Part shown: in pieces, positions 2,881 through 20,400 of the stretch
How positions within the stretch are numbered: position 1 is the stretch's first letter
How the letters are laid out: every line of letters begins with the position of its first letter
From: Nostoc sp. PCC 7120 = FACHB-418
Lineage (GTDB): Bacteria > Cyanobacteriota > Cyanobacteriia > Cyanobacteriales > Nostocaceae
NCBI RefSeq assembly: GCF_000009705.1
Contig: NC_003272.1
Coordinates: 5,490,001 to 5,522,000 of the forward strand
Direction: 5' to 3'
DNA: 32,000 bases
Notes under the pieces: model-generated
Told to the model about the DNA's origin: nothing
Database searches by the model: none
Seen by the model: only the letters and a program-made list of their open reading frames with translations
Program-made: the position numbers and the translations under genes

Positions 2881-3770
2881 GCAAAAAATTAGTAGACAGG
2901 CTGCTGCTATTTTGTTTCACATTTGTTCTTGGCTTCACATTTACTATTCATAATGTCCAAGCCGAATCAGCACCTTTCTATTGGGAATTTATCAATGTCG
3001 ATATTGCCGTACAGCCTAACGGTGATATGTTAGTCACTGAGACACAAAAATATAATTTTATTAGAGATTATAACCATCTGCGTTCCCGGTACATTCCTTT
3101 AGATAATGTAGACAGAATTACTGAAGTTTCTGTATCCGAAAATGGTCAATTGTTACCCAGTATAACAAGTACAAGTACAGGAAATCATCAATTGTTGATT
3201 AGTTGGGAACATCAATTGCAATCACCAGAAAGCCATACTTTCGTGTTGAAATATCGTGTTATTGGAGGATTGCTCGTCAATCATAACTATGCTCAAGTAT
3301 ACTGGGAAGCAATATTCTCTGACCGTAAAGCCCCTATTAAACAGGCGCAGGTTAGGGTGGAATTTCCTGAAGAACTTACTAATAAAATTAAAATATTCCA
3401 AAGCTTTGGTGTAGTTGCAGATATTCGCCGAGTCGATACAAAAACTATTGAGGCTGTTACTAAACAATTTATAGAGCCAGGGACGGGGTTAAAAATTCAG
3501 GTGATATTTGATCGTGCGGGTACTAAGATTGAAACCTCTGGATGGCAAAGTACACAATTTTTTTATGAGAGGTTAGTGTGGATTTTGTTGGGATTGCTAG
3601 TCTTTGGTATCCCTCTTCTCCTCATTATTGTCTCTAGGAATGGGACTGGGACTAGTAGTAGCTACATTGGAGACAGTAGTATTGATTACTATGGCGGTGG
3701 CGGTGATTATGGTGGCGGTGATTATGGTGGCGGTGATTATGGCGGCGGTGGTGGTGGCGGTGGTGATTAA
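2877..3770 (+). CDS. DUF2207-like membrane protein with signal peptide, one C-terminal TM helix and a Gly/Tyr/Asp-rich tail
   Basis: N-terminal hydrophobic signal (LLLFCFTFVLGFTFTIHNVQA). FYWEFINVDIAVQPNGDMLVTETQKYNF resembles the DUF2207 N-domain. TM segment WILLGLLVFGIPLLLIIV. The tail GGGDYGGGDYGGGDYGGGGGGGGD is encoded by three 15-bp units (3696-3740). Confidence 0.65.
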   Translation: MSKKLVDRLLLFCFTFVLGFTFTIHNVQAESAPFYWEFINVDIAVQPNGDMLVTETQKYNFIRDYNHLRSRYIPLDNVDRITEVSVSENGQLLPSITSTSTGNHQLLISWEHQLQSPESHTFVLKYRVIGGLLVNHNYAQVYWEAIFSDRKAPIKQAQVRVEFPEELTNKIKIFQSFGVVADIRRVDTKTIEAVTKQFIEPGTGLKIQVIFDRAGTKIETSGWQSTQFFYERLVWILLGLLVFGIPLLLIIVSRNGTGTSSSYIGDSSIDYYGGGGDYGGGDYGGGDYGGGGGGGGD

Positions 3771-4081
3771 CCAAATAAACGCTGTACGCATTTGAGAATT
3801 ACTGGTTGTAAATAAAAGCGTTCCACATCACCAATACCTTCACCAAAAAGAGAGTATGAAGAGATAGGGCTGCTGTAGTAGGGCTAAGGTATTGCTAGCT
3901 CAAAAGATATTGGCTGGATAAGTTTTATACTCATACTGCAAAGGAAAAGAATCTACCTTTAGCCCTGGGAGAAAGTCTTAATTTATCCTGCAAATAATTT
4001 GGGTGTGTAGGTTTTATCGTAAAAATAGAATTTACTGTAACAATTCGATATAAAATCTAAAATCTAAAATCCCCAATTAAG

Positions 4082-5473
4082 ATGGCAGACTTAACTCCTA
4101 ATTCCAGTTTTAGTGTTACTCTCCGATTACAGATTCCCAATCGTGTGGGAATGCTAGCATCTATCACTCAAGCGATCGCATCTAGTGGTGGTAATCTCGG
4201 TCAAATCGATTTAATCGAGCAAACACGCCAAGTTTCTCTCCGTGACTTAACTGTTGATGCTGCTAGTACTGAACACGCGGAAACTATTGTGCAAGCAGTC
4301 AAAGCCATACCTGATATTAAGTTAGTCAGCGTTTACGATCGCACCTTTAATTTACATCGTGGCGGGAAAATCAGCATCACCAGCCGGATTCCTCTCAAGA
4401 GTGTATCCGACTTAGCAATGGCTTATACCCCTGGCGTGGGTCGGGTTTGTACGGCGATCGCTCAAGACCCATCGCAAGTATACAATTTAACTATCAAACA
4501 AAATACTGTCGCCATTGTCACTGATGGTAGTGCGGTTTTAGGATTGGGTAATCTTGGCCCCCATGCAGCTTTACCAGTGATGGAAGGTAAAGCCATGTTA
4601 TTTAAGGAATTTGCTGGGTTGGATGCCTTTCCTATTTGCCTCGCTACCCAAGATACAGAAGAGATTATCCAAGCCGTCAAAAATATTGCCCCGGTTTTTG
4701 GCGGTGTGAATTTAGAGGATATCGCCGCACCCCGTTGCTTTGAAATTGAGAAGAGATTGCGCGATGAATTAGATATTCCTGTTTTTCACGATGACCAACA
4801 TGGTACAGCAATTGTCACCTTGGCAGCTTTATTTAACTCCTTGAAACTGGTGCAGAAGTCACTGGCCGACATCCGCATTGTGATTAATGGTGCTGGTGCA
4901 GCTGGCGTGGCGATCGCCCGGTTACTACGGAAAGCTGGGGCAGAAAAAATCTGGATGTGCGACTCTAAAGGCATTATCTCCACCACTCGCACCGACCTCA
5001 ATGAAGAAAAACAGGAGTTTGCCGTCAAAGCTCAGGGTACACTAGCTGGTGCAGTCCAAGGCGCAGATGTATTTATTGGTGTGAGTGCGCCTGGAGTCTT
5101 AACACCAGAGATGGTAAAGTCTATGGCTAAAGATGCGATTGTTTTTGCTATGGCTAATCCCATACCCGAAATTCAGCCAGAATTGATTAGCAAGGATGTA
5201 GCTGTTATCGCCACAGGTCGCAGTGACTACCCTAACCAAATTAATAACGTGTTAGCTTTTCCTGGGGTATTCCGTGGTGCGTTGGATTGTCGCGCGCAAA
5301 CAATTACCACCACCATGTACTTAGAAGCAGCCAGTGCGATCGCTTCTTTGGTTAATCCCTCAGACTTGAGTCGGGAACATATTATTCCCTCAGTCTTTGA
5401 TGAACGTGTCGTTACCGCCGTCGCTGCTGCTGTGCAACGTGCAGCGCGAGAAGAGGGGATTGCACGGGGTTAA
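4082..5473 (+). CDS. NAD(P)-dependent malic enzyme (oxaloacetate-decarboxylating malate dehydrogenase) with N-terminal ACT domain
   Basis: 463 aa. ACT-like N-terminus (VTLRLQIPNRVGMLASITQAIASSGGNLGQIDL), then the malic-enzyme core (AYTPGVGRVC, VTDGSAVLGLGNLG, VFHDDQHGTAIV) and a Rossmann motif (NGAGAAGVAIARLL). Confidence 0.93.
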   Translation: MADLTPNSSFSVTLRLQIPNRVGMLASITQAIASSGGNLGQIDLIEQTRQVSLRDLTVDAASTEHAETIVQAVKAIPDIKLVSVYDRTFNLHRGGKISITSRIPLKSVSDLAMAYTPGVGRVCTAIAQDPSQVYNLTIKQNTVAIVTDGSAVLGLGNLGPHAALPVMEGKAMLFKEFAGLDAFPICLATQDTEEIIQAVKNIAPVFGGVNLEDIAAPRCFEIEKRLRDELDIPVFHDDQHGTAIVTLAALFNSLKLVQKSLADIRIVINGAGAAGVAIARLLRKAGAEKIWMCDSKGIISTTRTDLNEEKQEFAVKAQGTLAGAVQGADVFIGVSAPGVLTPEMVKSMAKDAIVFAMANPIPEIQPELISKDVAVIATGRSDYPNQINNVLAFPGVFRGALDCRAQTITTTMYLEAASAIASLVNPSDLSREHIIPSVFDERVVTAVAAAVQRAAREEGIARG

Positions 5474-5523
5474 TTAACACTTCGACTACGTTCAGTGTTA
5501 AATTTAAAAGTTTTTTTGATTAA

Positions 5524-5555
5524 GGATGGGCGGATTCGTCCATCCTTTATATTTT
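5524..5555 (+). terminator. Hairpin plus T-rich tail after the malic enzyme gene; left copy of the island-flanking repeat
   Basis: GGATGGGC (5524-5531) pairs with GTCCATCC (5538-5545), followed by TTTATATTTT. Nearly the same 32/33 nt recur at 14624-14655. Confidence 0.6.
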
Positions 5556-5615
5556 AACGGGTTCAGTTAAAGGTATAAATCAAAATTAAAGTAGGTTAAT
5601 TTGGTATCCGTTAAA

Positions 5616-5897
5616 GTTCCAATGCTCATTCACGAGTCTTAAACACTCGTCAACCAAGTTCCAATACTCGTCCACGAGTCTCAAACACTCATTCACGAGT
5701 CCCAAACACTCGTCAACCAATTTCCAATACTCACTCACGAGTCTTAAACACTCGTCAACTAGGTTCCAATACTCGTCCACGAGTCTCAAACACTCGTCAA
5801 CTAAGTTCCAATGCTCATTCACGAGTCTTAAACACTCGTCAACCAAGTTCCAACACTCATTCACGAGTCTCAAGCACTCGTCAACCAATCTCCAATA
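5616..5897. repeat. Tandem array, about 6.5 units of a 42-bp repeat built from two related 21-mers
   Basis: Unit GTTCCAAT(G/A)CTC(A/G)T(T/C)CACGAGTCT(T/C)AAACACTCGTCAAC(C/T)A(A/G). Each unit contains ACGAGT-N7-ACTCGT, which can form a hairpin. The 111-aa minus-strand ORF here only reads out the repeat (LVDECLRLVNEHWN repeated). Confidence 0.9.
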
Positions 5898-5982
5898 AGT
5901 AGAATGACTTGAAAAAAACAAACTATGGTAAAAATACTAGGATTCGTTTCTTAGTGATAACTTTAGTCTTTTCCTGAGAACT

Positions 5983-6195
5983 AAAGTTACGCGATGTGCG
6001 ACTTATTTGTGAAACCCCTCTCCATAGCTTGCTACTCTACGAGTTCTCCGTAGGAGTACCCGCAGGGTACCTCTCCCCGTTGGCGTTAGCCTGCCGTTAG
6101 GCAAGCGGAGAGAGGCTTTGAATCTTGCTCCCCTTCCCTTGCAGGGAAGGGGTTGGGGGTTAGGTTTGAGAGAAAGTTGCACACGGCGTAAAGTT
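5983..6195. mobile_element. MITE-like small dispersed element of about 213 bp with imperfect terminal inverted repeats
   Basis: Left end AAAGTTACGCGATGTGCGACTT (5983-6004) matches the reverse complement of the right end AAGTTGCACACGGCGTAAAGTT (6174-6195) at 17/22 positions. The interior is non-coding and hairpin-rich (CCCTTCCCTTGCAGGGAAGGGG), a motif style I recall from Nostoc dispersed repeats. Confidence 0.5.
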
Positions 6196-6269
6196 CCTAC
6201 TACAAAACTTTAATTAACCAAGACGATAATTTAAACTGGTTGAGATTTATTTGAAAAATTAGGGATAAG

Positions 6270-7853
6270 ATGACAGAAAAAGCAGCAAAGCAGAATAACT
6301 CAGAGTCATTTGAGCAGAAATTATGGAAAGCGGCGGATAAGCTGCGAAAAAATATTGATGCTGCTGAGTATAAGCACATTGTTTTAGGTTTAATTTTTCT
6401 GAAATATATTTCTGATGCCTTTGAAGAGTTGCATCAAAAGCTGCTGGCGGGTGAGGGGGATTACGCAGGGGCAAATCCAGAGGATAGGGATGAGTATTCA
6501 GCAGAGAATGTGTTTTTTGTGCCAGTTGAGGCGCGGTGGTCATATCTTCAAGGACAGGCGAAGCAACCGGACATTGGTAAAACCGTTGATTTGGCTATGG
6601 AAGCAATTGAGCAGGAAAACGCCAAACGGTTAAAAGGGATTTTACCCAAGGTGTATGGACAGCAGAAATTAGACCAGAAATCTTTGGGTGGATTAATTGA
6701 CTTAATTGGATCAATTACGTTAGGGGATGCTGAGGCACAGGCACAGGATGTTTTAGGGCGAGTCTATGAATATTTTTTGGGACAATTTGCTCTAGCTGAA
6801 GGCAAGAAAGGCGGACAGTTCTATACACCTGAAAGTATTGTGAAACTTTTAGTTGAGATGTTAGAACCCTACAATGGGCGTGTCTTTGACCCTTGCTGTG
6901 GTTCAGGGGGGATGTTTGTCCAGAGTGAGAAGTTTGTCAAAAATCACCAAGGGCGTTTGGATGATATCTCAATTTATGGGCAGGAGAGCAACGAGACAAC
7001 CTATAAATTGTGTCGGATGAATTTGGCGATTAGGGGGATTGACGGCTCAAATATTAAGTGGAATCCTGAAGGTTCGTTTCTCAATGATGCTCACAAGGAC
7101 TTAAAAGCGGATTTTGTCATTGCTAATCCTCCTTTTAATGATAGTGATTGGGGCGGCGAGTTATTGCGAAATGATGGACGTTGGCTGGATAAAGACCTTG
7201 TACCTCCAGTTGGGAATGCCAATTTTGCTTGGGTATCGCATTTTATTTACCACTTAGCACCCACAGGTTCGGCGGGTTTTGTGTTGTCGAATGGTTCGCT
7301 GTCGTCAAATACAAGCGGTGAGGGAGATATTCGCAAGGCTTTAGTGCAGAAAGATTTGGTGGATTGTATTGTCATGTTGCCAACCCAACTTTTTTACAAT
7401 ACGGGTATTCCTGCTTGTTTGTGGTTTCTTAGTCGGTATAAAAACGGGAATAAAAACAGGGATAGACACGGTGAGGTATTGTTTATTGATGCCTCAGAGT
7501 TGGGTTATATGGTAAATCGCAGTAGTAGGGCTTTCACGGAAGCTGAGATTAGCAAGATTGCTGATACTTACCATGAGTGGAAAAAGTCGGGGGGGAGTTA
7601 CCGCGATATCAAAGGCTTTTGTAAGTCTGCATCAATCGCGGAAATTGAGAAGCATAATTTTGTGTTGACACCAGGGCGATATGTGGGGATTCCTGATGAA
7701 GTGGAGGATGGGGTGAGCTTTGAGGAGAAAATGAGTGAGCTTACAATGGCATTAGGTGAGCAAATGCGAGAGGGGCAATTGTTGGATGAGGAGATTAAAA
7801 AGCAATTGTTAAAGGTGGGATTTATTGTTAGTGATGAGTTGGTTGATTTTTAA
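6270..7853 (+). CDS. hsdM: Type I restriction-modification system, N6-adenine DNA methyltransferase subunit M
   Basis: 527 aa. HsdM N-terminal domain ([36 protein letters not shown]), AdoMet motif I ([12 protein letters not shown]) and catalytic motif IV (VIANPPFN). Confidence 0.95.
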
Positions 7854-7988
7854 GGAGATGAATATGACTCAAGTTATCTTGAAAAAGCTTAACCCCATTG
7901 TTATAGAAAAACTAAAACATCTGGCTCAGAGTCATCAACGGACTTTGGAAGAAGAAATCACATCTATTCTTGAGGATGTAACAGAAAA
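7844..7988. repeat. 145-bp direct repeat, copy A (hsdM 3' end, RBS and antitoxin N-domain)
   Basis: Aligns base for base with 8856-9000. I counted only about 6 mismatches by eye. Confidence 0.9.
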
Positions 7989-8121
7989 TACGCCTATAAT
8001 TACATCTAAAAGTAGGGACTGGTCGCCTGGTTTTTTTGAGCAGACTTGTGCTGGTTGGCAGGGGGAATTGTTAGTTAGAGAGCCTCAGCCAGAAGCACAG
8101 GAACGAGAGCCGCTATTATGA
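7858..8121 (+). CDS. Ribbon-helix-helix (VapB/FitA-type) antitoxin, copy 1
   Basis: AAGGAG (7852-7857) precedes ATG 7858/7864. MNMTQVILKKLNPIVIEKLKHLAQSHQRTLEEEITSILEDV is an RHH-style N-domain. The C-terminal half (SPGFFEQTCAGWQGELLVREPQPEAQEREPLL) looks like a toxin-binding tail. The stop overlaps an ATG that opens a PIN-like stub. Confidence 0.7.
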   Translation: MNMTQVILKKLNPIVIEKLKHLAQSHQRTLEEEITSILEDVTENTPIITSKSRDWSPGFFEQTCAGWQGELLVREPQPEAQEREPLL

Positions 8122-8141
8122 GTTATTTGTTAGATACCTAA
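8118..8141 (+). pseudogene. Remnant of a PIN-domain (vapC) toxin gene, truncated after 7 codons
   Basis: ATGAGTTATTTGTTAGATACCTAA encodes MSYLLDT*. It is in the ATGA-overlap position expected for a toxin gene and matches the start of the intact VapC at 9142 (MSIKYLLDTNIISE). Confidence 0.6.
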
Positions 8142-8225
8142 AATGTTTTGCTACCTACACCAATAGAGACTTTTCAAACAACCTCTTATATTAATTTGTG
8201 TTGATTGCACATGAGGTAACAAAAA

Positions 8226-8804
8226 ATGATTGCTGTAAAAGGTAAGTTTCCTAAGTTAACACCCGAAGAATATTTCATCTGGGAAGAAAAACAACAGCTT
8301 CGCCATGAGTATCTTAATGGTGAAGTTTACGCTATGACTGGGGGGACGCAAAATCATGGACGAATTGCTAGTAATATTATTTTCATTGTTAAAGGTCATT
8401 TACGGGGCGGTGGTTGTCAGGTTGGTAATTCCGATTGTCGTATAAATATTTTTGAAACGAAAGATTATGTTTATCCTGATGTGAGCGTTACTTGCGACGA
8501 GCGCGATCGCACTGCAATTCAAGCAATTCAATATCCCTGTTTAATTGTTGAGGTTTTATCTCCAAGTACAGCCAGTTATGACCGAGGGGATAAATTTAGA
8601 TTGTATCGTCGCAATCCTAGTTTACAAGATTATCTTTTGGTTGATGCTGAGAAAATAGCGATTGATTTATACCGCAAAAATGAGCGCGGTAATTGGGAGA
8701 TTTTTAATTATCAGTTGGGGGATAATATCAAGCTACAAAGTATTGATTTAAGTTTTCCCATTGAGTCGGTTTATGAGGATATTGTTTTTGAGGAATCAGT
8801 ATAA
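8226..8804 (+). CDS. Uma2-family (DUF820) PD-(D/E)xK endonuclease
   Basis: 192 aa. EEYFIWEEKQQLRHEYLNGEVYAMTGGTQNHGRI, then PDVSV ... LIVEVLSPSTASYDRGDKFRLYRRNPSLQDYLLVD. This is the typical Uma2 layout with a D...E-x-L/K nuclease core. Confidence 0.85.
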   Translation: MIAVKGKFPKLTPEEYFIWEEKQQLRHEYLNGEVYAMTGGTQNHGRIASNIIFIVKGHLRGGGCQVGNSDCRINIFETKDYVYPDVSVTCDERDRTAIQAIQYPCLIVEVLSPSTASYDRGDKFRLYRRNPSLQDYLLVDAEKIAIDLYRKNERGNWEIFNYQLGDNIKLQSIDLSFPIESVYEDIVFEESV

Positions 8805-8855
8805 ATAGCTAGTATTTCTATCAGTTTGGGAATGAATTTACTAAAAATGCCAAAG

Positions 8856-9000
8856 TGATTTTTAAGGAGATGAATATGACTCAAGTTATTTTGAAACAGC
8901 TTAACCCCATTGTTCTAGAAAAACTAAAACGTCTGGCTCAGAGTCATCAACGGACTTTGGAAGAAGAAATCACATCTATTCTTGAGGATGTAGCAGAAAA
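8856..9000. repeat. 145-bp direct repeat, copy B
   Basis: See 7844-7988. It includes the same TGATTTTTAAGGAGATGAATATGACTCAAGTT leader even though no hsdM end lies upstream here. Confidence 0.9.
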
Positions 9001-9145
9001 AGAGGAAGAACCAAAAAGCTCTGAGGGTTTTTGGGATATGACTTTACAATTTAGAGAAAGGATGCAGCAGGAGAATATTACTTTTGATGATGCAGATTTT
9101 GCGGATATTCGAGATCGCTCTGTCGGTAGGGATGTTGAGTTTTGA
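8870..9145 (+). CDS. vapB: Ribbon-helix-helix antitoxin, copy 2 (same N-domain as copy 1, unrelated C-terminal half)
   Basis: MNMTQVILKQLNPIVLEKLKRLAQSHQRTLEEEITSILEDV, then an acidic tail that differs from copy 1 (EKEEEPKSSEGFWDMTLQFRERMQQENITFDDADFADIRDRSVGRDVEF). The TGA stop overlaps the TTG start of vapC. Confidence 0.75.
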   Translation: MNMTQVILKQLNPIVLEKLKRLAQSHQRTLEEEITSILEDVAEKEEEPKSSEGFWDMTLQFRERMQQENITFDDADFADIRDRSVGRDVEF

Positions 9146-9573
9146 GTATTAAGTATTTATTGGACACAAATATTATTTCAGAAGCCACTCGTCAAAGTCC
9201 TAATGTTAATGTGGTTAAAAAACTTACTCAGCATCAATTAGAGACTGCGACTGGTTCAGTTGTAATGCACGAACTTTTATTTGGTTGTTTACGTTTGGTG
9301 GAATCACAAAAACGTCGATTGTTGCTGGAATATATTAATCAAATACCTTTAAAAATGACAATACTAAATTATGATTTAAAGGCTGCACAGTGGCACGCCC
9401 AAGAAAGGGCTAGATTATCTAAGATGGGCAAAACTCCAGCTTTTATTGATGGTCAAATTGCGAGTATTGCTTACAGTAATAATTTAATTTTGGTAACTAA
9501 TAATGTTTCCGATTTTGAGTCTTTTAATGATTTAGCGGTTGAAAATTGGTTTGTTAATAGTGGTGAAGGCTGA
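9142..9573 (+). CDS. vapC: PIN-domain ribonuclease toxin
   Basis: 143 aa. YLLDTNIISE (first acidic residue), HELLFG, FIDGQIASIA and LVTNNVSDF together give the canonical PIN acidic quartet spacing. TTG start. Confidence 0.85.
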   Translation: MSIKYLLDTNIISEATRQSPNVNVVKKLTQHQLETATGSVVMHELLFGCLRLVESQKRRLLLEYINQIPLKMTILNYDLKAAQWHAQERARLSKMGKTPAFIDGQIASIAYSNNLILVTNNVSDFESFNDLAVENWFVNSGEG

Positions 9574-9576
9574 GTT

Positions 9577-10749
9577 ATGAGTGAGTGGAAAGAGACGACT
9601 TTAGGAGAGATTGCAGACATTATTATGGGGCAATCCCCTACAGGTGAAACTTGTAATAATAATGGTCAAGGATTACCACTATTAAATGGCCCTACTGAGT
9701 TTGGGGATAGAAACCCATTACCTACTCAATTTACTATTGATCCAAAAAAGATAGCTGAAGCAGGAGATTTGCTCTTTTGCGTGCGTGGCTCAACCACAGG
9801 TCGAATGAACTGGGCAGATCAAAAATATGCAATTGGTAGAGGTATTGCTTCGATCAGAGCAAAAGATGGAATCCTATTTCAACCTTACATAAGAGCAATT
9901 ATTGAAAAAGAGTTAAAAAGTTTACTTGCAGTTGCTACAGGTTCAACCTTTCCAAACATTTCCAAAGATCATTTACTAAATCTCATTGTTCAGTTACCAT
10001 CTAAAAATATAAAAATCTATATCTCTAATCTTGCACGGATTTTAGATGAAAAAATTTATAACTTACGATCACAAAATGAGACGTTAGAGGCGATCGCACA
10101 AACTCTATTTAAGCATTGGTTTATAGATTTCGAGTTCCCCAACGCAGACGGCAAGCCCTATAAATCATCTGGTGGGGCGATGGTGCGATCGGCGTTAGGC
10201 TATATTCCCGAAGCTTGGAGTGTTGGGAAATTAGGACAATATCTCAATATTAAACATGGCTATGCTTTCAAGGGTGAATATATAACAACGGAAGTAACAG
10301 AAAAAATTCTTTTAACTCCTGTTAATTTTAAAATCGGTGGTGGATTCAATGATTCAAAGTATAAATATTACTCTGCTGATGATTATTCAAATGAGTATGT
10401 TCTAAGAAGAAAAGATTTGGCTATCACAATGACAGATTTAAGTAAAGAGGGAGATAGCCTGGGCTATCCTGCATTTATTCCAGATATTAAAGGAAAAGTA
10501 TTTTTACATAACCAAAGGATAGGAAAGGTAGAAAATAATAATATCGACAAAACATTTTTATATTTTCTTTTATGTCGTAGAGAATATCGATCTCATATTT
10601 TAGGAACGTCATCAGGTTCTACAGTTCGCCATACGTCACCATCAAGAATTTGTGAGTATAGTTTTGTGATTCCAGATTTTGAATTAATTGATAAATTTTC
10701 AGCCCTAGCCACAGCAACTATTGACAAAATACTAATCTCTACGCTATAG
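9577..10749 (+). CDS. hsdS: Type I restriction-modification specificity subunit S, apparently truncated in the distal conserved helix
   Basis: 390 aa. TRD1 with WKETTLGEIADIIMGQSP and CVRGSTTGRMN. Central conserved region ILDEKIYNLRSQNETLEAIAQTLFKHWFIDFEFPN. TRD2 with WSVGKLGQYLNIKHGYAFKG and HNQRIG. The C-terminal conserved region stops early at ATIDKILISTL*. Confidence 0.88.
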   Translation: MSEWKETTLGEIADIIMGQSPTGETCNNNGQGLPLLNGPTEFGDRNPLPTQFTIDPKKIAEAGDLLFCVRGSTTGRMNWADQKYAIGRGIASIRAKDGILFQPYIRAIIEKELKSLLAVATGSTFPNISKDHLLNLIVQLPSKNIKIYISNLARILDEKIYNLRSQNETLEAIAQTLFKHWFIDFEFPNADGKPYKSSGGAMVRSALGYIPEAWSVGKLGQYLNIKHGYAFKGEYITTEVTEKILLTPVNFKIGGGFNDSKYKYYSADDYSNEYVLRRKDLAITMTDLSKEGDSLGYPAFIPDIKGKVFLHNQRIGKVENNNIDKTFLYFLLCRREYRSHILGTSSGSTVRHTSPSRICEYSFVIPDFELIDKFSALATATIDKILISTL

Positions 10750-10790
10750 CTATTGGAGAAATTATCGATAGGAGACTAAGTTTATCCACA

Positions 10791-11465
10791 TTGCGTATTT
10801 TTAATAATGCCAGAATTAGGTTGAATGGAAATGGTTTGTTATCAGATAGGCTAGGCTGTAAACTAGAAATCATTGAAAAAATTTTAGAATATAATGATCT
10901 AAATAAATTCAATCTTATAATTGGTGAAATTGTTCCAATTTCTGTGATTGGCAAATTACGTGAATTAAATGATGAAAGAAATTCCTTTTCGCATATTGCA
11001 GCTTTAGAAGAATCTCAAGCTGAAGATAAATACAATTTACTTATATCGAAAGTCATAGATTTGCTTTTTGAAGTAAAGAAGCTAGAGTCTATATCATTAA
11101 TTCAATATAAAAATACTCTCAGTAACATTACTGATATAAGATTTTTAAAATTCGATGGGCATTCATTAAAGAAAAGAAATCATGACTTAATTGTAGACAA
11201 TAATTTTATACGAACAAATATCGATAATTTGAATGAATATCGGTTGTTTTGTAAGTTCATAGCCAACAATCAAATTATTTGCTTATCTCCTTTTGCTTAT
11301 GGTTATCTTCACAATGGATACCCTCATATTCTTTTCTACAAGAAACAAGCAGAAGAACCAAACTATTTTATATTTGAAGTGATTGCTGACCAACCCCGCG
11401 AAATTAAAATAGAACGGAATATTTTTGATGTATCAATTCAAATACTTGAATCTTTACTATTATGA
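10791..11465 (+). CDS. Restriction-linked hypothetical protein: N-terminal HEPN/DUF4145-like motif plus an unknown C-terminal domain
   Basis: 224-aa ORF between hsdS and hsdR. Its stop overlaps the hsdR ATG (ATGA at 11462-11465). RNSFSH (R63...H68, nt 10977-10994) lies within LRELNDERNSFSHIAALEESQAEDKYNLLISKVIDLLFEV. The region is markedly AT-rich. The start is uncertain: TTG 10791 is the first canonical start after the in-frame stop at 10722, and there is no well-spaced RBS. Confidence 0.6.
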   Translation: MRIFNNARIRLNGNGLLSDRLGCKLEIIEKILEYNDLNKFNLIIGEIVPISVIGKLRELNDERNSFSHIAALEESQAEDKYNLLISKVIDLLFEVKKLESISLIQYKNTLSNITDIRFLKFDGHSLKKRNHDLIVDNNFIRTNIDNLNEYRLFCKFIANNQIICLSPFAYGYLHNGYPHILFYKKQAEEPNYFIFEVIADQPREIKIERNIFDVSIQILESLLL

Positions 11466-14353
11466 AATACCTCACCGAAGACGAAATCGAACAATACCAA
11501 CTTCAACTTTTGCAAAACCTTGGTTATAGCTACAGCAACGGCTACGACATCCAACCAGAAGGCATCAAGCAAGAGCGAGAAAGCTTCGGTGAAGTAATTT
11601 TAAAACATAGACTCCCACAGGCAATATCACGAATTAACCCCACCATTCCCCATGATGCCCAATATCAGGCACAACGGGAAATATTTAATATTGCTAGTTC
11701 CGACCTACTCAACAACAACGAAATATTCCATAAATACCTCACAGAAGGCATCACCGTTGAATATCAAAAAAACGGCGAAACCAGAGGCGAACCTGTTAAA
11801 TTAATTGACTGGGAACACCCCGAAAATAACGAATTTCTCGCCGTCAACCAATTTACAGTAATTGAAGACAACCATAACCACCGCCCCGATATTGTCCTGT
11901 TCATTAACGGCTTACCCCTCGTCGTCATCGAACTAAAAAACGCCGCCAATAAAAAAGCCAATCTTAACGCCGCCTATAACCAACTCCAAACCTATAAACG
12001 CAGAATCCCTAGCCTATTTACCTACAATGCCCTATTAGTAATTTCAGATGGGCTATCCGCCCGTGCTGGTTCACTTACGGCTGGGTTTAACCGCTTCTCC
12101 ACATGGAAAAACCCCACAGGCGAAAACCAGATAAACGAACTAGAAATTTTAACTAATGGGCTACTCAACAAGCAAACTTTACTAGATTTAATTCGTCACT
12201 TCACTGTATTTGAAAAGTCCAAAACAGAAGACCTGAAAACAGGCATAGTTAGCATTACCACCATTAAAAAAATCGCCGCCTATCATCAATATTACGCCGT
12301 TAATAAAGCCGTCGAATCTATTATTAATGCCTCATCCCAAGAAGGCGCACGCAAAGGCGGTGTACTTTGGCATACCCAAGGAAGCGGTAAATCCCTTTCA
12401 ATGGTATTTCTGGCAGGAAAACTGGTTTTAAACGAAAACCTCCAGAACCCCACCATTGTCATGTTGACAGATCGCAATGACTTAGATGATCAACTATTTG
12501 ATACCTTCGCAGGTTGTCAGCAACTCCTCAGACAAGACCCCCAACAAGCAGGAGATAGAGAACAAGTCCGCCAATTACTTAACACCAACTCAGGCGGCAT
12601 CATATTTACCACCGTCCAGAAATTTTCCCCTGCTGATGGCGAAACCCTCTATCCCCAAATCAGCCCTCGCCCTAATATCATTGTCCTGGCTGATGAAGCC
12701 CACCGCAGCCAATACGGTTTCACAGCTAAACAAGTTAATGTCCTTGATGCTGAAGGTAACGTGATTGGTAAACGCACCAAATACGGCTTTGCAAAATATA
12801 TTAGACAAGCCTTACCCAATGCTACCTTTGTCGGCTTCACAGGTACACCCGTAGAACAAACCGACAAAAACACCCCCGCCATTTTTGGTGAATATATCGA
12901 CATCTACGACATCTCCCAAGCCGTCAAAGATGGGGCAACCGTGCCGATTTATTACGAAAGCCGCTTAGTACAAGTTGATTTAGACGCAGCAGGTAGACAA
13001 CTCCTAGATGAACTAGACGAAGACCTGAGCTTTGAAGACCTCAGCACCACCCAAAAAGCCAAAGCTAAACAAACCAAACTTGAGGCGATTGTTGGTTCTA
13101 CTAAAAGAATAAGACAGATTGCCCAAGATATTGTCACCCACTTTGAGGCACGGCAACAGGTAAACAAAGGCAAAGCCATGATTGTCACCATGAGCCGCCA
13201 AATCGCCGTTAATCTCTACGATGCCATAATTCAACTCCGCCCTGATTGGCACAGTGAGGATCTCAACTTAGGCAAAATCAAAGTTGTAATTACTACCTCT
13301 GCCGCCGATGAAGGTAATTTAGTTAAACATCACACCAGTAAAGCCCAACGTCAAAACCTCGCCCAACGCCTCAAAGACCCCGAAAACTCCCTAGAATTAG
13401 CCATAGTCTGTGATATGTGGCTCACAGGCTTTGATGCCCCATGTCTGCACACTATGTATATTGATAAACCGCTTAAAAGTCATAATTTAATGCAAGCGAT
13501 CGCCAGAATTAACCGCGTCTATTTTGAAAAAACAGGCGGTTTGATTGTGGACTATCTAGGACTAGCCACCGAACTCAAAAAAGCCCTATCCTTTTATTCT
13601 CAAAGTGGCGGTAAAGGCGACCTCACCCTCAATCAAGAAGTGGCGGTGGGACTACTCCTAGCCAAATTGGAAATCGTCGAGCAAATCATATCAGGCTTTA
13701 CCTATCAGCATTATTTTGAGGCTGACACTGGCGAAAAATTGAATATCCTCAAAAATGCCACTAACTACGTAGCTGCACCAAACATCAAAGATAGATTTCT
13801 CAGTGAAGTTATCGCCCTATCTAAAGCCCATTCTCTCGCCGTACCCCATCCCCAAGCGATCGCCGCATCAGAAACCATCTCATTTTTCCAAGCCATCCAA
13901 GCCAGCCTCAGAAAACTAGAAGGAAGTGGTGATAGTGGTGGACTCAGCAACCAAGACATCGAAACCGCCATCCGTCAAGTCGTAGATCAAGCCTTGGTAT
14001 CCGATGCCGTGATTAACATCTTTGATGAAGCAGGTATTAAAAATCCTGACATCTCCATCATCTCCGATGAATTTATGGCAGAAGTGCGGGGCATGGAACA
14101 CCAAAACCTCGCGGTGGAACTGCTGCAAAAACTACTCAAGGATGAAGTTAAAACCCGCAGTCGCACAAATATTGTCCAAAGTCGTAAACTCTCAGAAATG
14201 TTGGAAGATGCCCTACGCCGCTATCGCAACCAAGTGATCAGCGTTACGGATATTTTAGAAGAACTGCTGGAACTAGCAAAAGATACCAAAGCTGCCAACG
14301 CCAGGGGTGAAGAACTGGGACTAGAACCCTATGAACTGGCCTTCCTTTTATGA
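11462..14353 (+). CDS. hsdR: Type I restriction enzyme, endonuclease/translocase subunit R (3' end frameshifted)
   Basis: 963 aa. N-terminal PD-(D/E)xK core (RPDIVLFINGLPLVVIELK). SF2 helicase motifs: Walker A HTQGSGKSLSMVF, DEAH box VLADEAHRSQ, GFTGTP and QAIARINR. The frame ends at ELAFLL*, exactly where the conserved ELAFYDAL motif would begin. Confidence 0.93.
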   Translation: MKYLTEDEIEQYQLQLLQNLGYSYSNGYDIQPEGIKQERESFGEVILKHRLPQAISRINPTIPHDAQYQAQREIFNIASSDLLNNNEIFHKYLTEGITVEYQKNGETRGEPVKLIDWEHPENNEFLAVNQFTVIEDNHNHRPDIVLFINGLPLVVIELKNAANKKANLNAAYNQLQTYKRRIPSLFTYNALLVISDGLSARAGSLTAGFNRFSTWKNPTGENQINELEILTNGLLNKQTLLDLIRHFTVFEKSKTEDLKTGIVSITTIKKIAAYHQYYAVNKAVESIINASSQEGARKGGVLWHTQGSGKSLSMVFLAGKLVLNENLQNPTIVMLTDRNDLDDQLFDTFAGCQQLLRQDPQQAGDREQVRQLLNTNSGGIIFTTVQKFSPADGETLYPQISPRPNIIVLADEAHRSQYGFTAKQVNVLDAEGNVIGKRTKYGFAKYIRQALPNATFVGFTGTPVEQTDKNTPAIFGEYIDIYDISQAVKDGATVPIYYESRLVQVDLDAAGRQLLDELDEDLSFEDLSTTQKAKAKQTKLEAIVGSTKRIRQIAQDIVTHFEARQQVNKGKAMIVTMSRQIAVNLYDAIIQLRPDWHSEDLNLGKIKVVITTSAADEGNLVKHHTSKAQRQNLAQRLKDPENSLELAIVCDMWLTGFDAPCLHTMYIDKPLKSHNLMQAIARINRVYFEKTGGLIVDYLGLATELKKALSFYSQSGGKGDLTLNQEVAVGLLLAKLEIVEQIISGFTYQHYFEADTGEKLNILKNATNYVAAPNIKDRFLSEVIALSKAHSLAVPHPQAIAASETISFFQAIQASLRKLEGSGDSGGLSNQDIETAIRQVVDQALVSDAVINIFDEAGIKNPDISIISDEFMAEVRGMEHQNLAVELLQKLLKDEVKTRSRTNIVQSRKLSEMLEDALRRYRNQVISVTDILEELLELAKDTKAANARGEELGLEPYELAFLL

Positions 14354-14498
14354 TGCACTGTCACAAAACCAAAGCGCACAGGATGTAATGGGTGTTGATA
14401 AACTGCGAGAATTAGCGATCGTTTTAGTAGATCGCATTCGCAAAAATGTTTCTATTGACTGGAATCTTAAAGTTAGAACAAGCCAAAGTTTTTACTGA
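14346..14498 (+). pseudogene. Out-of-frame, truncated remnant of the HsdR C-terminal domain (DUF3387-type)
   Basis: The +1 frame reads FYDALSQNQSAQDVMGVDKLRELAIVLVDRIRKNVSIDWNLKVRTSQSFY*. From memory this is the usual continuation of HsdR, and it breaks off soon after the IDW motif. Confidence 0.7.
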
Positions 14499-14625
14499 AT
14501 TTGCAGTCTCAATCAACACATAAAAGGATTTGGTTTAGTGCTTTCCGAGGTATACCATAAAATCACAAAAAAGCTTAAATACTGAGCGTAGTCACGATGT
14601 TCAAGCTAAAAATTATCTTCACCAA

Positions 14626-14656
14626 GGATGGGCGATTCGTCCATCCTTTATATTTA
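14626..14656 (+). terminator. Hairpin plus T-rich tail; right copy of the island-flanking repeat
   Basis: GGATGGGCGATTCGTCCATCC followed by TTTATATTT. AAGGATGGGCGATTCGTCCATCCTTTATATTT (14624-14655) equals 5522-5554 apart from one extra G in the loop of the left copy. Confidence 0.55.
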
Positions 14657-14709
14657 TACTATTTCACTTGAATCATCCAAACAATTTCTCAAACCTTTAA
14701 CTTTTGGTC

Positions 14710-17025
14710 ATGAATAACCAAGCTGGAGACTTTTTCGAGGAACTACCGTTAATTTTAGCGGGGCCATTGCTACAACATACTGAAGCAAAATCAGTCACCG
14801 TACTGGTTGCACTGCAACAATCTTGTCGGGTAGAACTCAAAGTTTACGCAACAACAAATAATGGTGAAAGGTTAGGAAATTGTTTATTAGAAGGACAACG
14901 CTTAACGGTTGCTTTGGGCAAGTATCTGCACATTGTAGCGATTACAGCCGTGTCTCCCTTGGGAGAGAGTTTAATTAGCGATCGCATTTATGCTTATGAC
15001 CTCCAGTTCGCCTGTGCTGACCAAACTTTGCTAACTCTAGAACAAGCATTATCTTCAAATCGCTTTCCCCAAGTTAGTATTAGTTACTTTGAGCATCAAA
15101 AACCAACTTTTGTGCTTCCTCCAGATTCGTTGGCAGATTTGCATATTATCCATGCTTCTTGTCGCAAACCCCACGGACACGGAATAGATGCCTTACCCTT
15201 ACTCGATGCTCTCATTGCCTCAGCCGCCAAGCAACCCCGTAGCCGTCCTCATCAGTTATTCCTCACAGGTGACCAAATCTATGGTGATGATGTTGCAGAT
15301 CCGTTTTTATGGGTCGCCAGTCATCTTGGTGATGCCCTGCTTGGTTGGGAAGAAAGACTTCCTGTAGGTGAAGGTTATCGCACTCCCAAAGAACTAGCCC
15401 CAGGAGAACGGGCAAAAGTGGCCACTGAGGAAGCAATGCTGACAGCTGGATTGCATAATAAATCAGAGAAAGTTTCCAGTCATTTGTTTAGTTTGGGGGA
15501 ATATTACGCCGCTTATTTACTAGCTTGGTCGCCTGTGTGCTGGCCAGATGCCTTTCCCCCCGGAAAATGGGTCACAAGCGATCGCCAAGCCCTAAAAATT
15601 TGGGATCAGTCTGTAGCTGATTTACGACAATTAATTTACACACTGGGACAAGTGCGGCGATCGCTGGCGAATATTCCCATGTACACCATCTTTGATGACC
15701 ATGATGTCAGCGATGATTGGAACTTAAATCAAGCTTGGTGTTTACGAGTTTTGGGTAATCCTCTAGGACGGCGGACTGTACAAAATGCCTTGTTAGCATA
15801 CAGTGTCTTTCAAGCTTGGGGGAATACGCCAGAGCAGTTTACAGATGGGCGATCTGGGGAAAAGTTGCTAGCGGCGGCGAAGAATTGGTCAGCATCAGCC
15901 GGGAAGAATGTTGAGGCTGATCAGGCGATCGCTCGTTATGTCGGGATGCCAAGCTGTAACCCCCACACAGGACTACCCAATTTTGTTTTAGAAGATGGCG
16001 TATTTATTCTGGAACGCCATCCCGAAACACTGACTTGGCACTACACCATCACCAGCAATTGTCATGAAGTCATAGTATTAGACACCCGTACATGGCGGGG
16101 CTACCCAGCCGACAAAAAACCAATTGCCCCACCGATGTTGTTATGTCCCCGTGCAATGAAACAACAACTGTTGCAACCATTACAAAAAACCGCAGACAAA
16201 CAAAATCTCACCACCTTTGTGATTGCACCTACCAACGTATTTGGATTGCAAGCGATCGATTGGATTCATCATTGGCAGTTAAAGCGCGAAAAAGTTTTTT
16301 CTACAGATGTCGGTGATTCCTGGAATATCCATTTTGAAGCCTTAGCAAAACTCCTGACAACTTTATGTGAGCAACGCCAACAAGTCATCATTCTTTCTGG
16401 TGATATTCATTACAGTTGTGCCGCCCGCTTCTCTTATGGAGCAATTCCCCATTCACCACAGCAATCTGTCATAGTCCAGTTAACCGCCAGTGCTTTGAAA
16501 AATGAAGAGACGCTCACTAAAATAATCCATACACGATTAAAACAATGGCTTTTGCCAGAAAAAATTCGCCGTTGGCTAGGCTGGAATCAACCACCCAATA
16601 TGCTGGAAGTTACCGCAAAACGGTTACACCGCCGCCAAGCACTAACTAATCCTGATTGGCATTGTGTACTGGAGTGGATACCGCGACAACCCACCCAAAA
16701 TTTTTATCACCAATTGGATATGTCTACTTTCATTACCCCCAAAAACCGCCGAAATCTACGCTGGCAATGGTTAAAACCCCTGAAATTTTGGCAATCTCCC
16801 TGGTTCCAAGATGGACGAGAAGTAGTTGGGTTGAACAATTTAGCATTTGTTCACTTTGAGCTATCTGGTAATAGTAATTCTTATCAAGTCATTCAGGATA
16901 CTTATTGGTTTTCTTCTACGTCTACAACGCAAATTGTTTACAGTCGCTTTGCCACTGATTTGCAACCAAATCAGTACTTGTTAAATGAATTTTTGATTAT
17001 AGGGAGTCAACCAATTCACAATTAA
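14710..17025 (+). CDS. PhoD-like metallophosphatase-fold protein (large, function unknown)
   Basis: The motif series resembles PhoD-type calcineurin-like phosphoesterases: HASCRKPHG, LFLTGDQIYGDDV, IFDDHDVSDDWN, ILSGDIHYS. A beta-rich N-domain precedes it (ILAGPLLQHTEAKSVTVLVALQQSCRVELKVY). ATG 14710 is preferred over TTG 14704. Confidence 0.6.
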   Translation: MNNQAGDFFEELPLILAGPLLQHTEAKSVTVLVALQQSCRVELKVYATTNNGERLGNCLLEGQRLTVALGKYLHIVAITAVSPLGESLISDRIYAYDLQFACADQTLLTLEQALSSNRFPQVSISYFEHQKPTFVLPPDSLADLHIIHASCRKPHGHGIDALPLLDALIASAAKQPRSRPHQLFLTGDQIYGDDVADPFLWVASHLGDALLGWEERLPVGEGYRTPKELAPGERAKVATEEAMLTAGLHNKSEKVSSHLFSLGEYYAAYLLAWSPVCWPDAFPPGKWVTSDRQALKIWDQSVADLRQLIYTLGQVRRSLANIPMYTIFDDHDVSDDWNLNQAWCLRVLGNPLGRRTVQNALLAYSVFQAWGNTPEQFTDGRSGEKLLAAAKNWSASAGKNVEADQAIARYVGMPSCNPHTGLPNFVLEDGVFILERHPETLTWHYTITSNCHEVIVLDTRTWRGYPADKKPIAPPMLLCPRAMKQQLLQPLQKTADKQNLTTFVIAPTNVFGLQAIDWIHHWQLKREKVFSTDVGDSWNIHFEALAKLLTTLCEQRQQVIILSGDIHYSCAARFSYGAIPHSPQQSVIVQLTASALKNEETLTKIIHTRLKQWLLPEKIRRWLGWNQPPNMLEVTAKRLHRRQALTNPDWHCVLEWIPRQPTQNFYHQLDMSTFITPKNRRNLRWQWLKPLKFWQSPWFQDGREVVGLNNLAFVHFELSGNSNSYQVIQDTYWFSSTSTTQIVYSRFATDLQPNQYLLNEFLIIGSQPIHN

Positions 17026-17076
17026 AAATAGCCTACATCTGGGCTAAAGCCTACAAAATCCAAAGTTAAATAAGTT

Positions 17077-17116
17077 TGGGGTGGGCAGGTTTCCACCCCA
17101 CAAAAATTTTATTTTT
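17077..17116. terminator. Hairpin between convergent genes (PhoD-like gene and gcvP)
   Basis: TGGGGTGG (17077-17084) pairs with CCACCCCA (17093-17100) around an 8-nt loop. An A-rich then T-rich tract follows (CAAAAATTTTATTTTT), which suits termination from either side. Confidence 0.5.
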
Positions 17117-17176
17117 GGCTAATGTGCAGGCTAATTGAGCAACGGCTTATAACAATTCTCTTTGCTTAATTACCAA

Positions 17177-20128
17177 TTAGTTATAAGCATCCATTGGCAG
17201 GCAAGAACAAACAAAATTCCTATCCCCAAAAGCTGCGTCAATTCTGCCTACACTCGGCCAGAATTTATGCTCCCTTGTCCAAGGCGCGGGATAAGCCGCC
17301 TGTTCACGGGAATAAGGATGAGGCCATTCCCCAACAATCAAACTTTCAACTGTATGGGGGGCATTTTTCAAGGAATTATCTTGAATATCTACCTTACCTG
17401 CTTCAATGTCGGCGATTTCTTGACGAATAGCAATCAGCGCCTCACAAAAACGATCTAATTCTGCTTGAGACTCGCTTTCTGTGGGTTCCACCATGATTGT
17501 ACCTGCCACAGGCCAGGAGACAGTCGGGGCATGGAAACCGTAGTCTATAAGACGCTTGGCTATATCATCAATTTCGATGTTTGCTGATTTTTTGAGGGCG
17601 CGCAAATCTAAAATACACTCATGGGCAACTAGGCCATTTTGCCCTTTGTACAACACAGGATAGTAAGCTGCCAATTTCTTAGCGATGTAATTAGCATTGA
17701 GAATTGCCACCTTGGTTGCTTGCGTCAACCCATCCGCCCCCATCATGACAATATACATCCAAGAAATCACCAAAATACTAGCACTTCCCCAAGGTGCAGC
17801 AGCTACAGCACCGATATTTTGAGGATTTTTCCCACTCTCCAAAACAGGATGTCCTGGTAAAAACGGTACAAGATGGGATGCAACGCCAATCGGCCCCATA
17901 CCAGGGCCACCACCACCGTGAGGAATACAGAAGGTTTTGTGCAAGTTCAAATGACAAACATCCGCGCCAATATCCCCTGGACGACAGATACCCACTTGGG
18001 CATTCATATTTGCCCCATCCATATAAACTTGACCGCCATGACTATGAATCACAGCACAAATTTCTTGAATTCCTGCCTCAAACACACCATGAGTTGAGGG
18101 ATAAGTCACCATCAAAGCCGCCAGTTCATGGCTGTGTTTTTCTGCCTTGGCTTTGAGGTCATCAATATCAATATTACCTCCGGCATCACAGGCAACAGCT
18201 ACAACCTTCATGCCACACATCACCGCACTTGCTGGGTTTGTCCCGTGTGCGGAATTAGGAATTAAACACACATTGCGGTGTGTTTCTCCCCGACTTTGGT
18301 GATACTGACGAATTACCAAAAGTCCTGTATATTCCCCTTGAGAACCAGCATTGGGTTGCAGCGAAACCCCAGCAAATCCAGTAATTTCCCCTAACCACGC
18401 CTCAAGTTGTTGGAAGAGAATTTGATAACCCCGCGTTTGGGTTAAGGGCGCAAAAGGATGTATTCTGCCAAATTCTTCCCAAGTTACGGGAATCATCTCC
18501 GATGTAGCGTTTAACTTCATCGTGCAGGAACCCAAGGGAATCATCGAAGTAGTTAACGACAAATCTTTAGTTTCCAGCCTGTGTAGATAACGCAATAACT
18601 CAGTTTCTGAGTGATAACGGTTGAAGACGGGGTGTGTTAAGTAACTGCTTTGACGGCTAAAGGGTTCATCTTTTAAAGATGATTGCTGAATTATCCAGTC
18701 AAACTCTTGCACATTTAAAACAAATGGCAACTCATCCGTTCCCGCAAATATCCGGCATATATCCTTGACATCTTCGAGAGTTGTAGTTTCGTCAAGAGAT
18801 ATTCCCACTGTGGATGTATCCACAATCCTCAAATTAATTCGGTAAGCTTCAGCCGCTTCTAGAATTTCTTGGAGGGGTTTTTCCCCCAACTTTATCTGCA
18901 ATGTATCAAAGAAAGATTGAGACGTGATTGTATAACCTAGTCGCTGCAACCACACTCCTAAGACCAGAGTCAGGTGATGTATTCTCTCGGCAATTTGCTT
19001 GAGTCCTTCTGGCCCGTGATACACAGCGTACATACTCGCCATCACTGCCAGCAATACCTGTGCTGTACAAATATTACTCGTAGCTTTTTCACGACGAATA
19101 TGTTGTTCGCGGGTTTGCAAAGCCAGACGCAGGGCAGTTTTACCGTGGACATCTTTAGATACCCCCACAATGCGCCCTGGAACTTGCCGCTTGTACTCTT
19201 CTTTGGTTGCAAAATATGCCGCATGGGGGCCGCCGAACCCCAAGGGAATACCGAAGCGTTGGGTGCTACCTACGGCAATATCAGCCCCAAACTCACCAGG
19301 AGGGGTAAGTAAAGTTAAACTTAATGGGTCTGCGGCTACAGTTACCAATGCACCTTGAGCATGAGATGTTTCAATAAAAGCTCGGTAGTCGTAGATTGTG
19401 CCATCACTGGCGGGATATTGTAAAACTGCACCAAAAATCGGTTTATCAAAATCAAATGTCTGGTGATCCCCGATAATAATCTCAATCCCTAAGGGTTTAG
19501 CCCGTGTTTGTAAAACGTCGATGATTTGGGGATGACAATCATGAGAGACAAAATAAGCATTGGCCTTATTTTTGCTCACACCGTAACTCATACTCATGGC
19601 TTCGGCGGCGGCTGTTGCTTCATCAAGTAGGGAAGCATTGGCAATTTCCAACCCTGTTAGATCGATAATCATGGTTTGGAAATTAAGCAGTGCTTCTAGT
19701 CGCCCTTGGGCAATCTCCGGCTGATAGGGAGTATAGGCAGTATACCAACCAGGGTTTTCTAAGATATTACGCCCGATGACTGAAGGAGTAATCGTATCGT
19801 AATATCCCATACCAATGTATGAGCGAAACACCTGATTTTTAGAGGCAATTTGTTTTAACTTTGCCAAGGCTGCATACTCAGTTTGTGCTTCTGGCAACTG
19901 TAGCTGTTCATGCAGCCTGATTGCGCTTGGTACTGTTTTCTCAATCAAGTCATCTAGACTAGAAAATCCCAGCACATCAAGCATTTGTTGAATATCTGCC
20001 GATGATGGGCCTATATGTCTTTGTATAAAATTATTTAAATCTTGTTTCCTTTCGTCTAGCTGTAGACTAGCACCTACGGTAGAGTGAGCTTCATCGCTAG
20101 ACTGAGGAATAGAGGCATAAGATACCAC
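17177..20128 (-). CDS. gcvP: Glycine dehydrogenase (decarboxylating), glycine cleavage system P protein
   Basis: 983 aa single-chain P protein. PLP-lysine region [26 protein letters not shown]-terminal FIQRHIGPS and [25 protein letters not shown] start. Confidence 0.97.
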
Positions 20129-20400
20129 TAAATTAAACTCCAGAAGTAACTATTTAATATTTTGCAACAAATACCCCTGAAAGGTAGGGGTATTTTGTAA
20201 ACTCTTGAATGATTTATCAATAATCATTGAGATGAGGCGTGCTGGGTAATGAGTGCTGTAAAGCTTTGCGGGTATAGCTTCTCTACGAGAATCTACGCGA
20301 ACGCTTAGAGCAATAGCGGGGTGTTTATCTAGTGTTGAGTAAGGAGTTTTTCTCCTGCTTCTTTGCTCCTAGTCACCAGTACTCAGTCCCCAAAACCCAG

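Follow-up and report, generated by a model that had tools for sequence, protein, structure and literature searches.

The stretch of DNA analysed here (the window) comprises 32,000 nucleotides (nt) of the Nostoc sp. PCC 7120 chromosome (NC_003272.1, positions 5,490,001 to 5,522,000) and carries a type I restriction locus on its forward strand, in which a short open reading frame (ORF) separates hsdS from hsdR. This ORF, identified as alr4603 of Nostoc sp. PCC 7120 by exact-sequence look-up, occupies positions 10791-11465 (+) and runs for 224 codons from a TTG start to a TGA stop at 11463-11465. A preliminary description of the same DNA had treated it as a complete gene of 224 amino acids (aa) beginning 42 nt past the stop of a normal hsdS, and this does not hold: hsdS ends at 10749, 41 nt before the TTG, and it is itself incomplete. 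The ORF is very probably a non-functional remnant, left when a single 441-bp deletion joined a 3′-truncated hsdS to the 5′-truncated body of a gene of 341 codons. The name X is used below for this restriction-embedded gene, which encodes a protein of about 340 aa when intact and lies in the order hsdS-X-hsdR.

As it is read in the window, the ORF already has an irregular 5′ end. It contains no ATG codon, the TTG at 10791 is merely the first possible start downstream of a stop codon, and this DNA has been given three different starts in public annotations (with proteins of 224, 214 and 173 aa), which fits with the absence of a real start codon. At the other end, the overlap with hsdR noted in the preliminary description is present, the hsdR ATG at 11462 and the ORF stop together reading ATGA, and the AT-richness noted there is equally clear (G+C 0.277, vs 0.429 for hsdM, 0.354 for hsdS and 0.444 for hsdR). 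Searches of Pfam, NCBIfam and PADLOC with the window ORF returned no matching family for any part of it, a scan for promoters and terminators between hsdS and hsdR gave nothing above chance, and literature searches on alr4603 and the presumed neighbouring locus tags found nothing.

The extent of the remnant was mapped by protein alignment with 12 full-length relatives, by blastn against intact loci and by global alignment with one reference locus (L032), located on an 89-kb plasmid of Nostoc sp. C110 (CP171138.1) and consisting of hsdM, an RHH gene, a PIN gene, hsdS (434 aa), X (341 aa) and hsdR (1050 aa). The remnant spans 10737..11465 (+) and corresponds to codons 100-341 plus the stop of the 341-codon gene, so that the ORF beginning with TTG is its downstream part. 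Fifteen relatives were found among 5.8 billion proteins, the complete ones all measuring 339-348 aa, and the window protein can be aligned to the full-length relatives from residue 100 onward only. Similarity in the same frame extends 5′ of the TTG through ‘...LYAIAIGEIIDRRLSLSTL’ as far as 10737, where it breaks off within the final codons of hsdS; at the nucleotide level, blastn homology to intact loci begins at 10726-10729. Against the C110 plasmid, positions 10071-10736 of the window correspond to L032 7191-7856 (99.1% identity) and positions 10737-14472 to L032 8298-12029 (96.4% identity), which places the junction at 10736..10737 and leaves 441 bp (L032 7857-8297) unaccounted for in the window. 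Of the lost segment, 88 nt belong to the hsdS 3′ end, 56 nt are spacer and 297 nt (99 codons) come from X. Indeed, the final three residues and the stop of the window hsdS are X sequence read out of frame. In what remains of X, the N-terminal domain is missing, as is most of the long conserved helix bearing an invariant W93-E94 pair; an intact X combines full length, the N-terminal domain, the W93-E94 helix, an RNx3H motif and a C-terminal beta domain, and the window copy, with codons 100-341 only, falls outside that definition. An in-frame HsdS-X fusion was also considered and rejected, because hsdS and X are in different frames and a fusion protein therefore cannot result.

The lesion in X is one of several in the locus. 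The hsdM gene (6270..7853, +; 527 aa; Pfam HsdM_N and N6_Mtase) is apparently intact, being of the same length as in the reference plasmid, with 95.4% DNA identity over the blastn segment that covers it. The hsdS gene (9577..10749, +; 390 aa; Pfam Methylase_S) is 3′-truncated, and its product lacks the C-terminal conserved region (...NQIQTLTKTRDxLLPKLMSGQLRV) that is present in four intact HsdS proteins in the alignment and in the protein of the C110 plasmid. The hsdR gene (11462..14353, +; Pfam HSDR_N, SWI2_SNF2, T1R_D3-like and T1RH-like_C) encodes 963 aa, vs 1050-1059 aa in its relatives, since a 4-nt insertion (CCTT, at 14340-14343 in comparison with L032) ends the frame early. A small ORF at 14331..14498 (+) is the out-of-frame continuation of the hsdR C-terminus; it matches the HsdR protein of L032 up to ‘...DWNLK’ and is itself cut short by the absence of 95 nt at 14472|14473, a gap in relation to the same reference. 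A complete type I system would have hsdM, an hsdS with both conserved regions and hsdR, and in the window hsdM alone is complete. The type I locus of PCC 7120 thus appears to be decaying as a whole and, to judge by these lesions, it has presumably lost its restriction activity. A metagenome contig (L005) that differs from window positions 3764-21232 by one base in 17.4 kb carries, in addition, a 67-nt deletion inside the ORF, which breaks the frame into pieces of 124 aa and 78 aa.

PCC 7120 is not the only case in which the hsdS-X-hsdR operon has eroded. A metagenome-assembled genome of the Elainellales (L015 6962-7954) has an X with a shortened C-terminus, hsdR is split in a cyanobacterial genome of 7.8 Mb (L046 9020-12798), and a further short contig (L047) has no hsdR after X.

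The intact X family, on the other hand, is a real gene family. A search of 1.84 billion representative proteins with the window ORF as query yielded 101 relatives, and a search with a 13-member alignment yielded 61 clusters; when the profile of a 100-member alignment was compared with 5.8 billion proteins at E <= 1, only members of the X family were recovered, with no bridge to any other family. NCBIfam and PADLOC searches with four full-length relatives gave no match, nor did a tblastn search of plasmids with an intact relative. A scan of one genome per species located 26 X loci, and the family is represented in Nostocales, in Delta-, Gamma-, Beta- and Alphaproteobacteria, in Bacteroidota, Planctomycetota, Chloroflexota, Acidobacteriota and Cloacimonadota, and in other groups. 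Cultured strains with an intact copy include Buttiauxella brennerae ATCC 51605, Pandoraea bronchicola LMG 20603, Azovibrio restrictus DSM 23866, Pseudomonas sp. RGM2987 and Flavobacterium agri. The ratio of non-synonymous to synonymous substitution rates (dN/dS) in the family is about 0.17-0.2 at long range.

The link of X to the slot between hsdS and hsdR, in which the preliminary description had placed the ORF, is very strict. Among 45 fetched loci (about 35 distinct ones, the set including near-duplicates), the gene directly upstream of X is hsdS in all 45, each with that flank visible, and the gene directly downstream is hsdR in 43, both exceptions being short contigs. The gaps between X and its neighbours are usually -4 to +56 nt, with 4-nt overlaps with hsdR in many loci. 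Where precomputed hits were recorded for full-length HsdR, the Pfam domain set of the partner HsdR is constant and includes T1RH-like_C. In 21 loci, the pairwise identities of X correlate with those of both HsdR and HsdM (r = 0.91 in each case), a level reached by none of 2000 Mantel permutations, and X is the faster-evolving component (mean pairwise identity 42%, vs 58% and 65% for these partners). X therefore diverges together with HsdR and HsdM as a long-standing member of the operon, and not as a cassette that has repeatedly landed in a hotspot.

The low G+C content of the window ORF is also a family trait. X has the lowest G+C in comparison with hsdM, hsdS and hsdR in 13 intact operons (with a near-tie with hsdS in one of them, L003), and in these operons it lies 2-14 points under hsdR, whatever the G+C of the genome. 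Recent foreign insertion was considered as the source of this low value and rejected, since the low G+C is family-wide; amino-acid composition, expression control or xenogeneic silencing could be its cause.

An AlphaFold2 model of the intact protein, computed from 59 sequences, has a mean predicted local distance difference test score (pLDDT) of 92.8 and a predicted template modelling score (pTM) of 0.90. It consists of three parts: a small alpha/beta N-terminal domain (approximately residues 1-77), a helical bundle (residues 82-217) and a beta-rich C-terminal domain (218-325) with a helix cap. The residues that are invariant among the 59 sequences include P65, P67, W93, E94, R180, N181, H185 and P284, and E94, which sits in the helix formed by residues 82-111, is kept in all 86 members that have the region. 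The preliminary description had pointed to an R-N-S-F-S-H signature at residues 63-68 of the ORF, and this Rx4H motif is indeed there (10977-10994, +), corresponding to R180..H185 of full-length X, R and H being retained by 99/99 of the aligned relatives and N by 97/99. Equally accurate was its remark that the C-terminal part could not be placed in any family, the beta domain having no recognisable relative, and that the ABC-type NTPase domain of PrrC is absent: the 340-aa protein has no NTPase match and the model shows no such domain.

The same description had read the motif as HEPN/DUF4145-like. In HEPN domains, the motif lies at the end of a helix and the start of the loop leading to the next, an acidic residue is found in helix 2, and inserts are frequent between helices 2 and 3 (PMC3710099). 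On the AlphaFold2 model of X, the motif occupies the position expected of a HEPN domain: helix 167-184 ends with R180-N181, H185 is in the loop and helix 191-211 comes next, while an insert (112-164) follows the long helix 82-111, in which E94 is a candidate for the acidic residue; the numbering of HEPN helices on this model is a mapping made in the present analysis. Moreover, sub-threshold matches to HEPN models of Pfam were obtained with 100 distant relatives, namely 14 to HEPN_Swt1, seven to HEPN_RiboL-PSP, five to HEPN_Cthe2314 and one each to the Csm6 HEPN and HEPN_MAE_28990, and the two of these matches that were inspected cover the motif region.

Several search results weigh against this assignment. 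Among the 100 distant relatives, no match reaches a curated HEPN threshold, the best per-protein E value being 0.0026 and the scores 13-19 bits vs cut-offs of about 27. There is no Pfam HEPN match for the window ORF or its close relatives, and no HEPN model of Pfam matched family consensus sequences, whether whole or taken domain by domain. Sequence-profile searches of the PDB with three alignments returned no HEPN chain and only spurious matches of the leucine-rich-repeat kind. Foldseek, which is insensitive for helical bundles, found no PDB match at E <= 0.001, whether the query was the full model or the helical domain: the best E value was 0.26 for the full model (with weak OB-fold/beta-barrel matches on the C-terminal domain) and 2.2 for the helical domain alone, and the best HEPN-type match, to HepT (6m6u_D), had an E value of 5.6 and template modelling scores of 0.43/0.49 over 153 columns, other weak matches of HEPN type being to MtlR (6kcr_C) and LinB (3jyy). 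Membership in DUF4145 (PF13643) is not supported: this family is absent up to E = 1 for the window ORF. In a set of 13 close relatives, it is absent for the first one with the limit at E = 10 and from the families tabulated for the set, and it is also absent from the 25 families most often matched by the 100 distant relatives. The RN-x3-H signature, which occupies a HEPN-like position in the model, thus speaks for the HEPN claim, and the profile and fold matches to HEPN families are all sub-threshold. The helical bundle of X, with its invariant R-N-x3-H, is probably a HEPN domain, and most likely it would be a metal-independent ribonuclease (RNase) of the HEPN type.

If so, intact X would be produced together with HsdR and kept inactive on, or by, the restriction complex; a phage that disabled this complex would bring about the release of X, which would then cut RNA and abort the infection. 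This would follow the logic of PrrC, minus the PrrC ATPase (PMC3710099). That intact X is such a latent RNase, restrained by the restriction complex and freed when a phage disables it, is a proposal by analogy for which the chances appear about even.

A rival reading is that X is no nuclease but serves one lineage of type I enzymes as an accessory or adaptor subunit without catalysis, acting for example in assembly, in the regulation of HsdR or in sensing, and that the R-N-x3-H residues are used for binding. In favour of this are the strict embedding of X, its tight packing against hsdR (with the 4-nt overlaps already mentioned) and its divergence in step with HsdR and HsdM; moreover, no HEPN family was matched significantly by profile or by fold, and some proteins with the HEPN fold are non-catalytic, for example MtlR (PMC3710099). 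However, R, N and H are invariant, and both their spacing and their place in the structure are exactly those of catalytic HEPN motifs, and the sub-threshold Pfam matches gather on five HEPN families instead of being randomly scattered, so that an accessory role without catalysis seems unlikely.

For the copy in the window, the preliminary description had proposed that the 224-aa ORF is a working, compact HEPN effector of abortive infection that is expressed together with hsdR and has the type I enzyme as its guard. The frame is indeed open for 224 codons, it retains R-N-x3-H and the entire C-terminal domain, it overlaps the hsdR start, and no terminator-like site lies between hsdS and hsdR. 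Against this, the ORF is the 3′ two-thirds of a 341-codon gene: residues 1-99 (1-116 if translation started from the TTG), including the N-terminal domain and W93-E94, are gone, and all full-length relatives have them; there is no ATG; the guard is broken, with hsdS lacking its C-terminal conserved region and hsdR frameshifted; and a nearly identical strain (L005) has a frameshifting 67-nt deletion in the same ORF. Neither the compact effector nor its guarding by the type I enzyme of the window is borne out, and this proposal is disfavoured as highly improbable. Even less credible, indeed barely conceivable, is that the truncation is an artefact of assembly or sequencing in a genome with a full-length gene, for which nothing specific speaks beyond the general fact that deletions in AT-rich DNA can be artefacts, because the truncated form recurs in many independent assemblies: an identical protein is found in BAB76302.1 (PCC 7120), BAY70216.1, several FACHB strains and IMG contigs (65 contigs overall), and the same junction in metagenome contig L005.

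Two points count against regarding the window copy as a dead remnant. With 242 codons, it keeps an open frame that runs into the hsdR start, and some translation is possible; and the lineage-specific substitutions, zero synonymous and three non-synonymous, are too few to show relaxed selection by a branch-specific dN/dS. The remnant reading is nevertheless retained, and the window feature is filed as an ordinary pseudogene. The copy has neither the N-terminal domain, nor most of the E94 helix, nor an intact partner, and it cannot act as a guarded RNase.

Lytic phages have small hypothetical proteins that are homologues of the N-terminal domain (approximately 70-77 aa) deleted in the window, a homology noted at L032 8001-8240 and L039 2839-3237. 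It is matched by PHROG 9396 and 9294 (E values down to 4e-5), and a tblastn search with the family-consensus N-terminal domain recovered 176 phage records (E about 1e-5), while the same kind of search of phages with the cyanobacterial N-terminal domain gave no match. The phages concerned include PAK_P3-like Pseudomonas phages, rV5-like E. coli phages and phages of Campylobacter, Klebsiella, Proteus and Providencia; gp086 of PAK_P3 (132 aa) scores 35 bits against the profile of the domain, and short Foldseek matches in BFVD agree with the phage homology. It may be speculated that these phage proteins act as a decoy or as a trigger. In a more elaborate form, X would be an obligate fourth component of one lineage of type I restriction enzymes, an ATPase-less HEPN RNase docking via its N- and C-terminal domains, and the phage homologues (PAK_P3 gp086, rV5-like) would be decoys or triggers at the docking or sensing step. 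This is a tentative proposal that is rather doubtful as a whole; if true, it would amount to a guard-and-decoy pair new to description, of which the window would hold a dead copy only.

Other features surround the remnant. Between hsdM and hsdS, Pfam matches identify an RHH antitoxin-like gene (7825-8121, +), a gene of the Uma2 nuclease family (8226-8804, +), a second RHH copy (8855-9145, +) and a PIN/VapC-like gene (9142-9573, +). The two RHH genes flank Uma2 and share a 145-nt duplicate (7844-7988 and 8856-9000, 96.6% identity), and at the same interval the reference plasmid has a single RHH-PIN pair and no Uma2; since the intact reference has one such pair, the insertion of Uma2 seems to have been accompanied by duplication of the RHH 5′ end. 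In the intergenic region that separates a malic-enzyme gene from hsdM, a tandem array (5586-5921) with a period of 42 nt, five copies and 86% matches (also detected with a period of 63) yields a spurious repetitive ORF of 111 aa on the minus strand, and the identical array occurs in L005. On the C110 plasmid (89 kb, with ParA), the intact operon has as near neighbours a phage-type integrase gene and a cluster resembling CBASS (CD-NTase, Cap15-like). This region (L032 14221-17026) looks like a mobile defence island, from which the copy on the PCC 7120 chromosome may have come.

These results correct an annotation, alr4603 being a gene fragment in a major cyanobacterial model strain, and the apparent decay of the locus bears on the inventories of restriction and methylation in PCC 7120. 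The remnant leads, moreover, to a family found only between hsdS and hsdR, in many phyla, with an invariant motif of the HEPN type. As intact X is present in cultured strains, the idea of a latent RNase guarded by restriction becomes testable beyond PrrC, and the phage homologues of the N-terminal domain offer a concrete lead to a possible counter-measure.

The closest known parallel is PrrC of the E. coli prr locus (hsdM-hsdS-prrC-hsdR), with which X shares the slot between hsdS and hsdR, an Rx4-6H motif and an almost exclusive embedding, reported for PrrC by Payne et al. (2024, bioRxiv 10.1101/2024.01.29.577857) and observed for X here. PrrC is a latent RNase freed on neutralisation of the restriction enzyme (PMC3710099), and the same logic is what is proposed for X. 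Unlike PrrC and RloC, X has no N-terminal ABC-type (SbcC/Rad50-like) NTPase domain, its N- and C-terminal domains are different, and sequence similarity to PrrC is undetectable. The HsdR proteins that accompany X carry T1RH-like_C.

At least 16 HEPN clades embedded in restriction-modification operons have been catalogued and interpreted on the pattern of PrrC (Anantharaman et al. 2013, PMC3710099). Like X, these clades (Abi2/Swt1, ApeA, EC042_2821, pEK499_p136 and others) are solo, ATPase-less, located in restriction operons and predicted to be second-line RNases, and the weak Pfam matches of X relatives are mostly to HEPN_Swt1; X differs from them in remaining below every Pfam threshold and in having a three-domain architecture of its own. 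HepT of the MntA-HepT (HEPN-MNT) system (PDB 6m6u) is the best structural neighbour of HEPN type for the helical domain, with a match that is not significant, and no MNT antitoxin gene is adjacent to X. A further parallel is DarTG2 in the RRDM island of enteropathogenic E. coli (EPEC), an example of how a second defence module can recurrently occupy the hsdS/hsdR junction; DarTG2, however, is a mobile toxin-antitoxin cassette of two genes and occurs in other places too (PMC12255303), whereas X, in the fetched loci, is confined to the hsdS/hsdR slot and diverges together with its partners.

Embedding has itself been used as a guide to defence genes, and of the genes that lie embedded in type I systems, over half are still unexplained (Payne et al. 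2024, bioRxiv 10.1101/2024.01.29.577857). HEC-08 (a DUF3644 HEPN domain with a zinc-ribbon), found in this way in Hma systems, is like X a single-gene candidate of HEPN type, and mutation of its motif histidine abolished defence (same study). The host systems differ (Hma vs type I), as do the HEPN family and the C-terminal domains, and no PADLOC model, including those of Payne et al. 2024, matches X. The preliminary description had spoken of a module not described so far, which claims too much for the concept: HEPN genes in restriction operons are an established prediction, catalogued in 2013 (PMC3710099), and it is only the particular family to which the remnant in PCC 7120 belongs that appears to be unannotated, with no match in Pfam, NCBIfam or PADLOC.

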